Sequence record: PZ171035.1
DNA: 64,000 nt
Source: a phage
Direction: 5' to 3' (one strand)
Shown: positions 25,293-28,400 of the stretch, in pieces
Layout of the letters: the number at the start of each line of letters is the position of its first letter
How positions within the stretch are numbered: the stretch's first letter is position 1
Made by a program: the position numbers and the translations under genes
Notes under the pieces: generated by a model
What the model was told of the DNA's origin: nothing
The model's database searches: none
What the model saw: the letters and a program-made list of their open reading frames with translations, nothing else

Positions 25293-25300
25293 TCTGGTAG

Positions 25301-25462
25301 GTGGCTCAGAAGCTGCTGCTATTTGTGGTAGTGTTCGTAATTCTGATGCTATTGCTTATCAGGATTCTGGACGTGTCGGCTCCATACATAGCATTTATCA
25401 TCACTGTGCTTATACTTTGGAAACTCAGTGATAAAAACGGTGGTGACAAGCCGCCAGAGTAA
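25301..25462 (+). CDS. candidate small hydrophobic membrane peptide (below ORF-track length cut-off)
   Basis: GTG 25301 (or ATG 25346) to TAA 25460-25462; predicted ...LLLFVVVFVILMLLLIRILDVSAPYIAFIITVLILWKLSDKNGGDKPPE; followed 12 nt later by a 14-bp perfect hairpin. Confidence 0.3.
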   Translation: MAQKLLLFVVVFVILMLLLIRILDVSAPYIAFIITVLILWKLSDKNGGDKPPE

Positions 25463-25473
25463 CAACAACAACC

Positions 25474-25513
25474 GAACCAGTGGACTTTATTACTCCCCGA
25501 AGTCCACTGGTTC
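25474..25513 (+). repeat. 14-bp perfect inverted repeat (hairpin), 12-nt loop
   Basis: GAACCAGTGGACTT-TATTACTCCCCG-AAGTCCACTGGTTC. Confidence 0.8.
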
Positions 25514-26557
25514 AATCTAAACTAAGCGGAAAAGTTAGCTTTTTCTTGGGTGTAGAACCTGTTGAAGGAAACAAAGAATTTCACATTGAATAGTTAATAT
25601 CGTGAAGGGTTCTGTTAGAATCCTTTGAGATAGGAACTCCTATCATAACTATTCTTAACTTAATCATTGCCGTATGGCACTGACGCTAGGGGTGGCCCCC
25701 CCATCCGTCAGGTAGACTATTTTAAGAATGGATTATCACAGCAAATGTAAAGCAACATTCGGGTTAATCAATGGCCTCTCCCTATAGGGGCCATTTCTGA
25801 ATCTTAGGCTATATCCCAAAGGTTAGTATCTTTGGGATAAGGCTTCAGATCCCTTATCAACTAACGCTCGTGTTGAGCATTTTAATCACATAAGCCCCTA
25901 TATGGGCTGGGTTAAATGTCGGATAGCAAAGCTACCTACAGCATCGAATTGTTAGGTCTTACATGTAATATAGGGTATAAAGGGAGGACTCGTCCCCTCC
26001 CTCCTATTATGACATCCTATCAATGAGTACATTAAGCTAACGTGCGGAGGTTTACACTGTAGCCGGTGTAGGTGGAGAAGACGGCAGGGTAGCTACCTGT
26101 GCTTAGTGTACTCTTTGATAGTTTTCGTAAGCGATTATGCGGTTTTTTAGAAACGAACCAATAACATAAATGCAAACGATGATGTTGTTCTGATGGCGGC
26201 GTAATAGCCTGTAAGTCAGCAAGGTCTTCCGACTCCTTGTAAGCAAATTCGGCGCAGTGGCCCGCTGTGATTAATAATGGGCACACAACAGGTAAGAGCA
26301 TTTAGGCTACTGAGAAATCATCCGAGGCAATCAGACCTATCTTCTGTTAAGTGCTCTTTCCGTTGTGGTGAATGCGCAGGCTGATGCGCAGTGGGACGTG
26401 GCTGACTCACGAGGATGGCTCAAGCGAATAAGCAAGCTCGACGCCGCCGAATAAGCGCCTTATGCCGGAGATCAGCACCGGCCACCACAACAAGTCCAGA
26501 CGATATCTGAGTGACTATAAAAACAGATGGAGCCAGGTGGAATCCCTGGCAACTAAT

Positions 26558-26623
26558 TCCGGTGTAGGTACTAGTGTCGTGCACGGCATGAGCATTCTGG
26601 TTCGAGTCCAGACGCCGGAACCA
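26558..26623 (+). ncRNA. tRNA-like element (T-arm plus acceptor minihelix with encoded CCA)
   Basis: Acceptor TCCGGTG/CGCCGGA, T-arm TCTGG-TTCGAGT-CCAGA, discriminator A, CCA; only 63 nt before CCA and no canonical D/anticodon arms found. Confidence 0.3.
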
Positions 26624-26625
26624 AT

Positions 26626-26749
26626 TACCAGTTGCACGAGATGGCTTGACATGTTCAAGTTTGGACTAAGTGTGACACCGCTAGATTGGAGGGCTGCTGC
26701 GGTAAGCTATAGACTCCAACCGGAGGTTCGAATCCTTCACTGGTAACCA
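26626..26749 (+). ncRNA. tRNA-like element with ~48-nt extra internal sequence
   Basis: Perfect 7-bp acceptor TACCAGT/ACTGGTA, T-arm GGAGG-TTCGAAT-CCTTC, discriminator A, CCA; 121 nt between acceptor strands. Confidence 0.3.
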
Positions 26750-27332
26750 ATTCAAAGTAGCACTCGTTTATACTTCCCGGTATTCAAAGACACATTCTTG
26801 TGTGAGTGTTACTCTGAATTGTAAGAATTATGGGGGTAAGTCGTAAATACGACAGCGTAAGTACCAGATGAAACCTCTGGACGCCCCTACCATATTTGAG
26901 ATGTAACAGTTAAATCCGTACCCGGAAGTGCTATTCTAGATACGCTGCCAATGTGGAGACGGTAAGGCTGTACAGGACTCGGACTCCCACCTCAAACCAA
27001 AGTCGCCAGATACTTATGGCAAACGGGTAGTAACGAACTAGTCATTCGTCAAACGCCCACCCTATTATGAGTCAGCAAGAACGCCTTCACTTAAACTTAA
27101 ACAAAAAAGCTTAACGCAATAATTATGTAGGGGTATGTAAGGATTGCGAAGAAGGAGCCAGTTAAAGTCTGGCATGACTCACCTAATTGAGGCTGTACTT
27201 ATGTTCTACAGTAGGTGCACAACACTGGGCTGCTACACCCAGAGGTACAGCCTCACCCTATTATGGGTAGCCTATACTAGTTATAGGGCAGATAATCTGT
27301 GGCAGTGTAAGGCTGCACTACCCTTTCATTAA

Positions 27333-27408
27333 TACCCGGTAGGCTTAGTGGTAAAGCCCCACTAGTAAACCAACTAGGACGCAGGTTCGAATCCTGTCCG
27401 GGTAGCCA
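27333..27408 (+). tRNA. tRNA (anticodon not resolved)
   Basis: Acceptor TACCCGG/CCGGGTA, D-arm GGCT-TAGTGGTAA-AGCC, T-arm GCAGG-TTCGAAT-CCTGT, discriminator G plus CCA; anticodon arm pairs only with a shifted, non-canonical register. Confidence 0.55.
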
Positions 27409-27413
27409 TTTAT

Positions 27414-27498
27414 GCCCACTTAGCTCAGTGGTAGAGCGCAGGAAAGCTTCGAGAGAACAAGGTGTCTGTGGTCACTGGTTCAAATCCAGTAGTGGGTA
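27414..27498 (+). tRNA. tRNA, 85 nt, probably long-variable-arm type (anticodon not resolved)
   Basis: Acceptor GCCCACT/AGTGGGT, D-arm GCTC-AGTGGTA-GAGC, T-arm ACTGG-TTCAAAT-CCAGT; no CCA encoded; no canonical anticodon stem found by eye. Confidence 0.5.
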
Positions 27499-27813
27499 CT
27501 TATTTGCTGCAATATTCCCATAGGGAATGGTGTCGTATACGCCACCTAGTTTCTGGTGAAACTCCAGATGCAGCAATCCATTCAGCAGTAACATAGTCCT
27601 GATTGCATTGCACTCTAAAGACAACACTGGTAAGACAGTCCAGTGGCTGCTATTGTATTGATATTCCCCTCGACGGGAATTTCGCTAGTGAAGGTAACAC
27701 TTAAAAATCCAAACCCACGTCTTACTGCTATCGGGCTATCAACCCACAGTCGCTTAACACACTAGTGGTAGTAGTTTGACGACCTAGCCTCGTTAGCTGC
27801 GTTAAAGCTACTA

Positions 27814-27850
27814 AGTCCCCTAGAGCCGCCCCTCTAGGGGACTTTTTTAT
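27814..27850 (+). terminator. rho-independent terminator (12-bp perfect stem)
   Basis: AGTCCCCTAGAG-CCGCCC-CTCTAGGGGACT followed by T6. Confidence 0.75.
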
Positions 27851-27877
27851 TTGAGTATTAATAACCGGATAATCAAT

Positions 27878-28036
27878 ATGATTGACCTAATCTCAACCCC
27901 GTATGCCTATGAGGTAACGGACAACCGAGGGCATAAGTACTTGGTATTTGTAGGTAGCGTAGCCTATAACAACGCAGTCATGTTTAAGTACAAACTCAAA
28001 CCACTCTATGAGGCTAATAATGGCAACAGTAAGTAA
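27878..28036 (+). CDS. hypothetical small protein
   Basis: ATG 27878; ORF-track start at 27851 is TTG inside the terminator tail. Confidence 0.35.
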   Translation: MIDLISTPYAYEVTDNRGHKYLVFVGSVAYNNAVMFKYKLKPLYEANNGNSK

Positions 28037-28400
28037 AGAAGCAATCGAAGCTAAGATTAAGAGCGTCTACTATTTCAATGGATCGGATGCAGTGAAGTCT
28101 GCATTCGTTGACCCATCTGCACTTCCAGCAGATGATTTGGCTAACCTGGGTCTGACAACCCATTGTGTAATCATTCTGGAAAACAACTTTAAAGTTGAAG
28201 GTGTATCTGCTTGCGTAGACCCAACTATCTATGATGAACAGAAGGGTCGTCAATATGCATATGAAAATGCATTCAATAAGATTTGGGAATTAGAGGGTTA
28301 CCTACTACGTCAGGCACTGCACGAGAAAGAAGAGACCGCTAAAGCTCTGGCTTCCTTTGCAGAAAACAATACCTGTGATGGTGGTGGTTGTACAATCTGA
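28020..28400 (+). CDS. hypothetical protein
   Basis: ATG 28020 with GAGG RBS (ORF-track 28008 also possible); 126 aa. Confidence 0.45.
   Translation: MATVSKEAIEAKIKSVYYFNGSDAVKSAFVDPSALPADDLANLGLTTHCVIILENNFKVEGVSACVDPTIYDEQKGRQYAYENAFNKIWELEGYLLRQALHEKEETAKALASFAENNTCDGGGCTI

Follow-up and report, generated by a model that had tools for sequence, protein, structure and literature searches.

A widespread, unannotated phage RNA joins a tmRNA-type tag template to a leader complementary to host tmRNA

The stretch of phage DNA considered here, 64,000 nucleotides (nt) of sequence record PZ171035.1 and referred to below as the window, carries a non-coding gap of ~2.4 kb (25463-27850) that sits between two small phage genes. 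The region matches Gamaleyavirus, the G7C/St11Ph5-type N4-like podophages of Escherichia coli, at ~84-90% identity. It is best explained as a plus-strand cluster of stable RNAs that ends at one terminator, and the core gene of this cluster is best placed at 26117 to ~26367 or 26490. Bacteria rely on trans-translation as their main pathway of ribosome rescue and protein quality control. The core RNA joins a tag template like that of transfer-messenger RNA (tmRNA) to a leader directed against tmRNA, and it belongs to a family that is widespread in phages, selected and unannotated. The elements of the core gene and of the hairpin at its 5' side are these:

26019-26121, plus strand: long 5' hairpin CTATCAATGAGTACATT...AGTGTACTCTTTGATAG with a variable tip
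26117-26160, plus strand: antisense leader, complementary to E. coli tmRNA nucleotides 55-107
26161-26171, plus strand: single-stranded linker ending UAAAU, which precedes the resume codon
26172-26204, plus strand: tmRNA-type tag frame, GCA AAC GAT GAT GTT GTT CTG ATG GCG GCG TAA, encoding ANDDVVLMAA and a stop
26190-26219, plus strand: stop-codon hairpin with the stop in its loop, like tmRNA helix 5; outer stem CTGA/TCAG
26220-26252, plus strand: H-type pseudoknot, PK2-like; CAAGG...CCGA...CCTTG...TCGG
26260-26288, plus strand: second pseudoknot-like element, PK3-like; GCCC...TGTG...GGGC...CACA
26284-26367, plus strand: module A, the clamp CACAAC-AGGTAAGAGCATT...AGTGCTCTTTCC-GTTGTG around a hypervariable hairpin tip
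26364-26490, plus strand: module B, a tRNA-like 3' domain with a 7-base-pair (bp) acceptor-like stem TGTGGTG/CACCACA

The core RNA has the parts of an mRNA-like domain, namely a resume codon, a short open reading frame (ORF) for a tag, a C-terminal alanine and an in-frame stop, and it has frame-setting sequence upstream. A permissive Rfam scan gave sub-threshold matches at 26101-26253 to the permuted and betaproteobacterial tmRNA models, with the tag region aligned. The tmRNA_permuted match scored 31.2 bits (E 6.5e-4) and beta_tmRNA was also sub-threshold; the best scores were 31.2 bits for RF04321 (gathering 47), 18.5 for RF01850 (84) and 11 for RF00023 (47), and the gathering thresholds for tmRNA were not reached. 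A conserved-motif scan of IMG/VR retrieved 120 loci. In every one of 123 copies the frame is ten codons plus a stop, and the 16 peptide variants follow the pattern AN[DE]x..L..A, among them ANDDVVLMAA, ANEEMYLAVA, ANDEQFLAVA, ANDDLMLMAA and ANDNTFLAVA; the E. coli host tag, for comparison, is ANDENYALAA. Codons turn over synonymously, the last alanine being GCG, GCT, GCC or GCA and the leucine CTG or TTG. This pattern indicates that the tag is selected as a peptide, and we see purifying selection on the element because its helices covary and the frame is kept across all 16 variants. A looser regular expression for the tag caught unrelated short ANDFTG*-type strings, and its results were left unused.

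UAAAU before the GCA places U at -5 and A at -4, like U85 and A86 of E. coli tmRNA, and this arrangement recurs in copies from all lineages examined (the phage Mauresque has AAGU). A86 is a critical frame determinant of tmRNA, U85 also plays a role, and an 11-nt linker lies between pseudoknot PK1 and the coding sequence of host tmRNA (PMC2481249).

The helices downstream of the tag are maintained by compensatory change. The outer pair of the stop hairpin is A-T in 45 sequences and G-C in 44, and is paired in 100%. Stem 1 of the PK2-like pseudoknot varies in a compensatory manner (C-G 49/T-A 38; A-T 37/G-C 40/C-G 9), as does stem 2 (C-G 80/G-C 9; G-C 68/A-T 12), and the covariation makes this a well-supported pseudoknot. 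The PK3-like element is a less certain one: its stem 1 is swapped in relatives for other complementary stems (GTCCCTGA/TCAGGGA, TCCCCGT/ACGGGGA), and its stem 2 is poorly supported, with 56-91% of sequences paired. PK1 is absent from the core RNA.

Both flanking hairpins fold better than chance. For module A the minimum free energy (MFE) z-score is -3.31, with 0 of 200 shuffles folding equally well, and its clamp holds unrelated inserts in dozens of relatives. The invariant part, GGTAAGAGCATT...AGTGCTCTTTCC with outer CACAAC/GTTGTG, surrounds wholly different inserts in relatives L029, L009, L040 and many more, and some inserts carry hairpins like a T arm. The clamp is also found as tandem copies and in a place upstream of the tag; it behaves like a cassette holder. 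Its GTTGTG is able to pair with either of two CACAAC copies, so a structural switch or a recombination scar is possible. The 5' hairpin (26019-26121) has an MFE of -39.4 kcal/mol (z -3.69; 0 of 200 shuffles as good). Its 3' strand shares 5 nt with the start of the antisense leader, its clamp closes other inserts in L030 and L088, and it may be a processing stem.

Module B is arranged in the order acceptor-like strand, AA, D-like hairpin, internal arms and a T-like hairpin (GCCGG-9nt-CCGGC) beside the 3' strand, and its MFE fold is multibranched and cloverleaf-like. The closing stem covaries, from GTTGTGGTG/CACCACAAC to GTTGTGCTG/CAGCACAAC, and relative L118 has a canonical T arm and ACCA, while only ~9 of 51 copies encode NCCA. 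A tRNA or tRNA-like domain always follows the pseudoknots in the family. Module B itself was considered as a conserved tRNA-like domain and rejected in that role, since its interior differs between subfamilies and ordinary tRNAs take its place in FelixO1-like phages, where the next tRNA gene (tRNA-Leu or tRNA-Arg) stands in its position.

The core is not confined to N4-like phages. Homologues that are 70-99% identical to 26117-26490 occur, without annotation, between the genes of T1-like siphophages, Klebsiella Webervirus, Vi1-like Ackermannviridae, FelixO1-like Ounavirinae, Chaseviridae, other N4-like phages and lambdoid phages. The core occurs in 438 of 50,697 phage records and, as part of prophages, in 571 of 5,426 complete E. 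coli genomes, where it is distinct from the host ssrA gene, and none of the homologues is annotated as an RNA. Lambdoid copies occupy the late leader, with Q/pR'-tR' on one side and the holin gene on the other, on the transcribed strand; FelixO1-like copies are within the tRNA array. The T1-like and FelixO1-like copies have a near-consensus sigma-70 promoter (TTGACA, 17 nt, then TAGATT, TATAGT or TAATCT) that would set the RNA start ~55 nt before the tag and the antisense block at the extreme 5' end. With a start so close to the tag, the RNA would have no 5' acceptor strand. In the window, the body of the core is T1-type, 92-98% identical to the siphophage copies, and the leader is the N4-like variant; the N4-like relatives carry another variant.

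The leader is complementary to E. coli tmRNA over PK1, the resume codon and tag codons 3-6, in collinear blocks of 10, 7 and 12 bp. TAGTTTTCGT (UAGUUUUCGU in RNA letters) pairs with tmRNA 97-106, which are tag codons 3-6, GCGATTA (GCGAUUA) with 85-91, including U85, A86 and the resume codon, and TGCGGTTTTTTA (UGCGGUUUUUUA in RNA letters) with 68-79, the PK1 3' strand and linker. AACC pairs with 57-60, and further pairs reach 57-66 on the PK1 5' side. Against E. coli K-12 tmRNA, RNAduplex gives the leader -41.5 kcal/mol, compared with -25.4 +/- 3.1 for shuffles, 0 of 500 of which were as good. An alignment-type score that takes collinear Watson-Crick and G-U pairs (40.5) was equalled by 4 of 9136 genome windows and 1 of 1000 shuffles. 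For the leaders of phages HC6, KZag1 and HK633 and of L009, no shuffle among 2000 reached the observed score; 12 of 2000 did so for SPARTY and 5 of 2000 for Mauresque.

The complementarity is conserved in every lineage examined. All 53 unique leaders form their best duplex at the same tmRNA site. At each of host positions 57-62, 65-66, 68-80, 86-91 and 97-106, no fewer than 70% of the leaders are paired, and at most of these positions no fewer than 90% are. Common leader substitutions, namely U for C facing G87 and G for A facing U88, preserve pairing by wobble, and the sole hypervariable, length-variable stretch faces the host bulge 92-96. FelixO1-like and Chaseviridae leaders, those of SPARTY and Mauresque among them, have a different middle sequence, with contiguous complementarity to tmRNA 80-108. 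By itself the leader is unstructured (-6.8 kcal/mol, z -0.13), and because phage tag codons 3-6 are never host-like it does not self-anneal. Between the end of the duplex and the phage resume codon lie 9-12 nt, compared with the 11-nt host linker. The tmRNA target is near-invariant in 120 species, mostly Enterobacterales and other Gammaproteobacteria (e.g. Pasteurellaceae), which fits the occurrence of the RNA family in phages of Enterobacterales. Some Yersinia and Serratia (host tmRNA loci L178, L207, L208 and L213) differ at the start of the tag, reading UAAUU and then GCAAACGACUCGCAAUAC.

We tentatively favour a model in which the core RNA binds to host tmRNA, hides the tag there and offers a tag of its own, as a surrogate coding piece, because this reading is the simplest to draw on every conserved feature, from the antisense leader and the frame-setting UA to the translated-looking tag with its stop hairpin and pseudoknots. 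The unstructured leader would anneal to host tmRNA 55-107 and open PK1, and the host linker, A86, resume codon and tag codons 3-6 would be buried in the resulting duplex. The phage strand would emerge from the PK1 end of the duplex, followed by 9-12 single-stranded nt ending in UAAAU and then its own GCA, ten-codon template (ANDDVVLMAA), stop hairpin and pseudoknot scaffold. A ribosome rescued by host Ala-tmRNA-SmpB would resume on the phage template, and stalled proteins would receive AANDDVVLMAA in place of AANDENYALAA. The minimum outcome would be that host tagging is blocked. A helix around the resume codon is known to block tmRNA, whereas tmRNA still functions when PK1 or the tag sequence is changed (PMC2481249). 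The tRNA or tRNA-like fold at the 3' side could offer a cleavage site to RNase P and so fix and stabilise the 3' end. Annealing in vivo, use of the phage template by the ribosome and processing by RNase P are steps that we infer, and it is tempting to suppose that the pay-off is, for example, altered proteolysis of tagged proteins or escape from abortive-infection stress.

Several points weigh against this model. Raw RNAduplex energy does not make the leader an outlier among 50-nt windows of the 64-kb sequence (leader -38.8 kcal/mol; mean -29.7, sd 4.9; best -48.5), and as raw energy is undiscriminating, the statistical case rests on composition-matched shuffles, alignment-type scores and conservation. 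The 53 leaders are mutually homologous and so are not independent cases, and the Moogle leader is marginal, with 55 of 2000 shuffles reaching its score. The near-invariance of the target makes a test of phage-host covariation uninformative. A bulky hybrid might fail to load into the ribosome, and the surrogate-template model leaves the conserved tRNA-like 3' domain and module A without a necessary role. No precedent is known for an RNA that lends its template in trans to a complete one-piece tmRNA. The further proposition, that the trans-acting coding piece and the complete host tmRNA make up a chimeric two-piece tmRNA with a tag chosen by the phage (e.g. AANDDVVLMAA or AANDEQFLAVA), is possible, and we hold it more loosely.

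The same complementarity would also serve a pure inhibitor of trans-translation, in which the antisense leader silences tmRNA, the 3' domain perhaps titrates SmpB and the frame is never translated. There is precedent for both halves of this idea: a helix around the resume codon inactivates tmRNA (PMC2481249), and an RNA of mycobacteriophage DS6A that consists of a tRNA-like domain only is reported to inhibit tmRNA strongly, perhaps by titrating SmpB (PMC4131195). The DS6A RNA keeps the tRNA-like domain and lacks a tag template, whereas the core family does the reverse. An inhibitor, moreover, needs no ten-codon frame, no stop in a loop, no synonymous turnover, no U-A dinucleotide and no covarying pseudoknots, yet all of these are kept across divergent phages, and we therefore regard pure inhibition as unlikely, returning to the surrogate template as the preferred account.

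Judged by its sequence, the core RNA is not a tmRNA. A tRNA-like domain made by pairing of the 5' and 3' ends was sought, and no complement to the 5' end was found near any 3' end. G3:U70 is absent from TGTGGTG/CACCACA, TCCGGTG/CGCCGGA, TACCAGT/ACTGGTA and TACCCGG/CCGGGTA of the window and from GGTTGGT/ACCGACC of Mauresque, and a systematic though noisy scan for T arm, acceptor stem and NCCA around every copy gave zero G3:U70 candidates. ARAGORN called no tmRNA in the window, in HC6, in KZag1 or in the lambdoid loci, and most relatives go unrecognised by it and by Rfam alike. A permuted gene order finds no T arm or CCA upstream of the tag in the window, where 26019-26121 is a plain hairpin.

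Four candidates that would have brought the element closer to tmRNA were examined and set aside. 'GGCCACCA' at 26480-26487 was considered as a tmRNA 3' end, and its CCA (26485-26487) proved to lie inside the covarying stem GTTGTGGTG/CACCACAAC. GCCGGTG (26064) with CACCGGC was considered as an acceptor stem, and the 5' strand is absent from HC6 and KZag1. Pairing between the module B interior and the leader, as in a cleaved two-piece RNA, was sought by eye only and was unconvincing, and the candidate segment is deleted in KZag1. ARAGORN reported a permuted tmRNA in Citrobacter phage Moogle (L130 922-1670), which we judge largely spurious and not credible as a single RNA: over its ~750 nt, a promoter and three tRNA genes separate the two 'pieces'. 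The tag of the Moogle call is ANDNVFLAVA, and such calls may hide among published counts of phage 'two-piece tmRNA'; the Moogle record lists its tRNA features on the strand opposite to that of ARAGORN.

An autonomous tmRNA of rearranged form is nonetheless conceivable, in which a 3' tRNA-like domain (module B, the long tRNA-like gene TL2 described below, or a mini domain) would be processed to NCCA, charged and used with SmpB. The gene order would then have the tag template 5' of a whole tRNA-like domain, unlike either the standard or the permuted form. The constant presence of a tRNA-like domain or tRNA after the pseudoknots speaks for such an arrangement, as do the covarying acceptor-like stem, the canonical T arm with encoded ACCA or GCCA in L118, HK633 and L026, the permuted call in Moogle and the 66-nt mini domain of the Chaseviridae phage Mauresque, which has GGACGCG before its T arm. 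GGACGCG resembles the tRNA-like domain at the 3' end of E. coli tmRNA. However, G3:U70, the determinant of alanine charging, is in no member examined, the stems reading U1-A72, G2-C71 and U3-A70. Encoded NCCA is as rare as noted above, the module B interior is unconserved, and FelixO1-like phages have an ordinary tRNA-Leu or tRNA-Arg at that position. An RNase P cut at the 5' side of the domain would sever the tag template, and, given established tRNA biology, a 5'-extended acceptor end would be unlikely to fit EF-Tu or the peptidyl-transferase centre. The antisense leader is left unexplained, and Rfam stays sub-threshold where ARAGORN is silent (window, HC6, KZag1 and lambdoid loci). Autonomous action is, on balance, improbable.

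It could also be asked whether the element is an inert relic, a fragment of a bacterial tmRNA gene gained by recombination (at ssrA attachment sites, for example) and spread passively near tRNA genes. The ssrA gene is the target of many integrative elements, and fragments of it can occur in prophages (PMC11915505, PMC9004378); the element is a mosaic that moves between phage families, as the 92-98% identity of the window copy to T1-like copies illustrates. Yet the 3' tRNA-like part found at attachment sites is missing from it, it is present in strictly virulent phages, it has its own promoter in some of them, its helices covary and its tag frame is maintained, and its sequence is not that of E. 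coli ssrA. A relic is thus very improbable.

Set beside known systems, the core RNA resembles one-piece tmRNA (SsrA, RF00023) in its GCA with U at -5 and A at -4, its ten-codon AN[DE]...A tag, its stop in a helix-5-like hairpin loop and, downstream, one well-supported H-type pseudoknot and a less certain second one, and the surroundings of the tag align to the models. It differs in having neither the end-paired tRNA-like domain, nor G3:U70, nor PK1, and its 5' region is antisense to tmRNA rather than homologous. Two-piece tmRNAs (RF01849-51, RF04321; Alpha- and Betaproteobacteria, cyanobacteria) gave the best sub-threshold matches and likewise have a coding piece base-paired to an acceptor piece. 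In a true two-piece tmRNA, however, a single permuted gene gives rise to both pieces, of which the coding one starts with the 5' acceptor strand, whereas the proposed partner of the phage RNA is a complete host tmRNA, engaged through PK1, linker and tag, with no acceptor piece upstream.

Complete tmRNAs are known from the mycobacteriophage Bxz1 group, Bacillus phage G and marine phage Melnitz, and from 402 phages by ARAGORN (PMC4131195, PMC11915505, PMC9004378). Like the core RNA they are phage-borne, linked to trans-translation and often near tRNA genes; they are of standard or permuted forms that the tools recognise, whereas the core RNA goes unrecognised by those tools, has no canonical tRNA-like domain and carries a leader against host tmRNA. 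Trans-encoded base-pairing small RNAs (sRNAs) use 5'-terminal seeds, and the core RNA shares with them an unstructured 5' end complementary to single-stranded host RNA, in prophage copies within a late-gene leader. It departs from them in that its complementarity extends over ~40 bp in several blocks and its antisense part is fused to a translatable tag template. tmRNA is not known to be a target of sRNAs. Signals for RNase P that resemble tRNA are found in MALAT1-mascRNA, and stable RNAs occur in the T4 tRNA cluster; here too a tRNA or tRNA-like fold lies directly 3' of a putatively functional RNA and within a tRNA gene cluster, and use of RNase P at this place would be by analogy. We found no description of the core family, of its tag peptides or of an antisense RNA against tmRNA in open-access papers or bioRxiv, although one may exist in subscription journals.

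The remainder of the region and its neighbours are as follows:

25301-25462: upstream flanking ORF, phrog_19025 match
25474-25513, plus strand: long hairpin (ccagtggactt...aagtccactgg) at the left edge of the RNA cluster, just past the stop of 25301-25462
25588-26033, plus strand: non-coding block of serial local hairpins, N4-like phages only, 87-94% identity in 9 N4-like relatives
26558-26623, plus strand: TL1, mini tRNA-like gene; acceptor TCCGGTG/CGCCGGA, encoded ACCA, no anticodon arm
26626-26749, plus strand: TL2, long tRNA-like gene; acceptor TACCAGT/ACTGGTA, encoded ACCA, no anticodon arm
26750-27332, plus strand: non-coding block, N4-like phages only, common to 6-9 N4-like loci, with two copies of CCTATTATG
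27333-27408, plus strand: tRNA-like gene, perfect cloverleaf with a 6-nt anticodon loop; first pair U1-A72, encoded GCCA
27414-27498, plus strand: tRNA(Thr)-like gene with the long arm CAGGAAAGCTTCGAGAGAACAAGGTGTCTG in place of the anticodon arm; no encoded CCA
27499-27812, plus strand: non-coding tail block, N4-like phages only, with 27575-27810 covered by 8-12 loci
27813-27850, plus strand: intrinsic terminator (stem 27813-27844) that closes the RNA cluster
27851-28036: downstream flanking ORF, phrog_34266 match
28008-28400: ORF of the N4 gp49 family

The original prediction, made from the letters alone, had described most of this gap as an ORF-free, hairpin-dense RNA region with a tRNA cluster and possibly one or more large structured RNAs; the observation was partly confirmed and its interpretation partly supported. 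The absence of credible ORFs stands, as the three named (26032-26301, minus; 26462-26746, plus; 27144-27332, plus) have no PHROG or Pfam match whereas the small flanking ORFs do match. The proposed boundaries are present too, as the hairpin at 25474-25513 and a terminator with a 13-bp stem (27813-27844, seven G-C pairs) and a T run, TTTTTATTT. The pairing of GGCTGTAC at 27191 with GTACAGCC was seen again, with the partner at 27245-27252 and not at 27247; this hairpin (27191-27252) is inside the 26750-27332 block, of which 27175-27330 is poorly conserved and found in only 2-4 N4-like loci. The raised G+C holds for the centre (0.50-0.52 at 26200-26800, against 0.41-0.49 in the flanks) and not for the rest of the region. 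A special density of hairpins was not borne out: the mean MFE z-score in 150-nt windows is -1.33 within the region, against -1.01 for the coding flanks (Mann-Whitney p=0.12), and strong local structure is confined to 25400-25925, 26675-26900, the hairpins 26019-26121 and 26284-26367, and the terminator. Promoter-like sites number five in the region, against 4.3 expected in shuffled sequence.

What the prediction had seen as a plus-strand RNA region with tRNA-like elements and structured RNA beyond the reach of tRNA scanners is there, but a single RNA of the GOLLD or ROOL type is not. The scanners leave the region unexplained and find few tRNAs, as expected (ARAGORN one, 27333-27408; Rfam two, 27333-27405 and 27414-27498), and related phages conserve it. 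The tag template with its antisense leader, common to many unrelated phages, was beyond what inspection of the letters could show. The covariance-model scan for large phage-associated RNAs gave no match to GOLLD, ROOL or other large RNAs in Rfam, either over the whole window at gathering thresholds or over 25300-28000 at E<=10. One large RNA over most of the 2.3 kb is therefore scarcely credible, even though the region is ORF-free, adjoins tRNAs and has some very stable local hairpins, for its blocks recombine independently and differ in phylogenetic range, its z-scores are no better than those of the coding flanks, and its N4-specific blocks give no usable covariation signal.

The region instead appears to be a mosaic of modules that differ in phylogenetic range. 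The block at 25588-26033, with MFE z-scores down to -4.5, was not found in phage groups other than N4-like; RNAalifold counts 2 compensatory and 19 broken among its 122 pairs, in relatives too alike for a covariation test. The other N4-specific blocks, 26750-27332 and 27499-27812, also fold into local hairpins. The motif CCTATTATG occurs three times in the window (26003-26011, 27061-27069 and 27257-27265), always on the plus strand and within the region. Each copy comes after a C-rich run or hairpin, the extended form is CCNCCCTATTATGR, and three or more matches arise in 7 of 100 shuffles. The motif could be a phage promoter or an RNA processing site. Further out, a neighbouring 3456-aa minus-strand ORF is presumably the virion RNA polymerase, from its size and N4-like context only.

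None of the four tRNA-like genes of the region (TL1, TL2, 27333-27408 and 27414-27498) is a canonical tRNA with a 7-nt anticodon loop and an assignable anticodon. TL1 has the T arm TCTGG-TTCGAGT-CCAGA and a fold z of -1.98, and in L102 its acceptor reads TCCAGG/CCTGGA, compensatory at pair 4:69. TL2 has the T arm GGAGG-TTCGAAT-CCTTC and an internal domain of ~85 nt, with TATCAGT/ACTGATA as a compensatory change in L020; since TL2 directly follows the pseudoknots in L119, we take it to be the native N4-type 3' domain. TL1, too, counts among the native N4-type 3' domains left downstream of the core. The gene at 27333-27408 is tRNA-??? to ARAGORN, with no assignable anticodon, and scores 39.3 bits as an Rfam tRNA (27333-27405); its acceptor covaries in L018 (TACCCAG/CTGGGTA). 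The gene at 27414-27498 scores 53.9 bits with a 24-nt insertion and draws no ARAGORN call. We take it to be tRNA(Thr)-like by its likeness to E. coli tRNA-Thr, and phage ST4 has a tRNA-Thr annotated at the matching position.

The arm CAGGAAAGCTTCGAGAGAACAAGGTGTCTG of that gene is homologous to the arm CAGGAGAGCTTCGGAAGAACAAGGTGCCTG in the tRNA-like 3' domain (module B) of lambdoid phage HK633 (L124 2808-2837), and the shared arm holds AAGGUG, which is Shine-Dalgarno-like. Nearly all tRNA-like elements of the cluster start with U1-A72 (TCCGGTG at 26558, TACCAGT at 26626, TACCCGG at 27333, TGTGGTG at 26364), an unusual feature that may reflect a common processing or identity rule. The repeat GTCCAGACG occurs right after module B (26492-26500) and at the junction of T stem and acceptor in TL1 (26606-26614), and 26530-26557, with AACTAATT after it, has the look of a degenerate T arm (GCCAGG-TGGAATC-CCTGGC). 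The recombination that inserted a T1-type body into an N4-type cluster has probably left these scars.

Other phages have further RNAs near the element. Hafnia phage SPARTY has a tRNA-like RNA of 177 nt (L131 1247-1423) immediately upstream of the promoter of the element. This RNA begins with GGGTGATTCTG, similar to the start of tmRNA, GGGGCUGAUUCUG, and carries a T arm, GCCA and a G2:U71 pair, not G3:U70. It may be a stand-alone RNA resembling the tRNA-like domain of tmRNA. In the virulent Vi1-like Klebsiella phage KZag1 (L002 2921-3135), a match to STnc100, a Salmonella sRNA family, scores 52.9 bits in Rfam (gathering 47) ~1.1 kb downstream of the element. In phage HC6 (L001 1991-2064) and several N4-like relatives, the tRNA found with the element is annotated as tRNA-Ile with anticodon AAT, unusual in bacteria; its homologue in L013 has CAT instead.

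Some phages need trans-translation for growth, and the pathway is a drug target. Carried by ~1% of sequenced phages and by ~10% of the complete E. coli genomes, the core family has so far escaped annotation. If it silences or re-templates tmRNA, it would add a new layer of host takeover, and it would account for the long stretches without annotation in tRNA clusters and lambdoid late leaders. A new set of C-terminal tags would be predicted, with fates at ClpXP, SspB and Lon, and the element would offer a natural design for the delivery of tmRNA templates in trans. Should the chimeric host-phage reading hold, it would be the first instance of a virus changing what ribosome rescue produces, and of a natural template given to tmRNA in trans. 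Even if it should prove an odd autonomous tmRNA or an inhibitor of tmRNA, the family is new and merits an Rfam entry.

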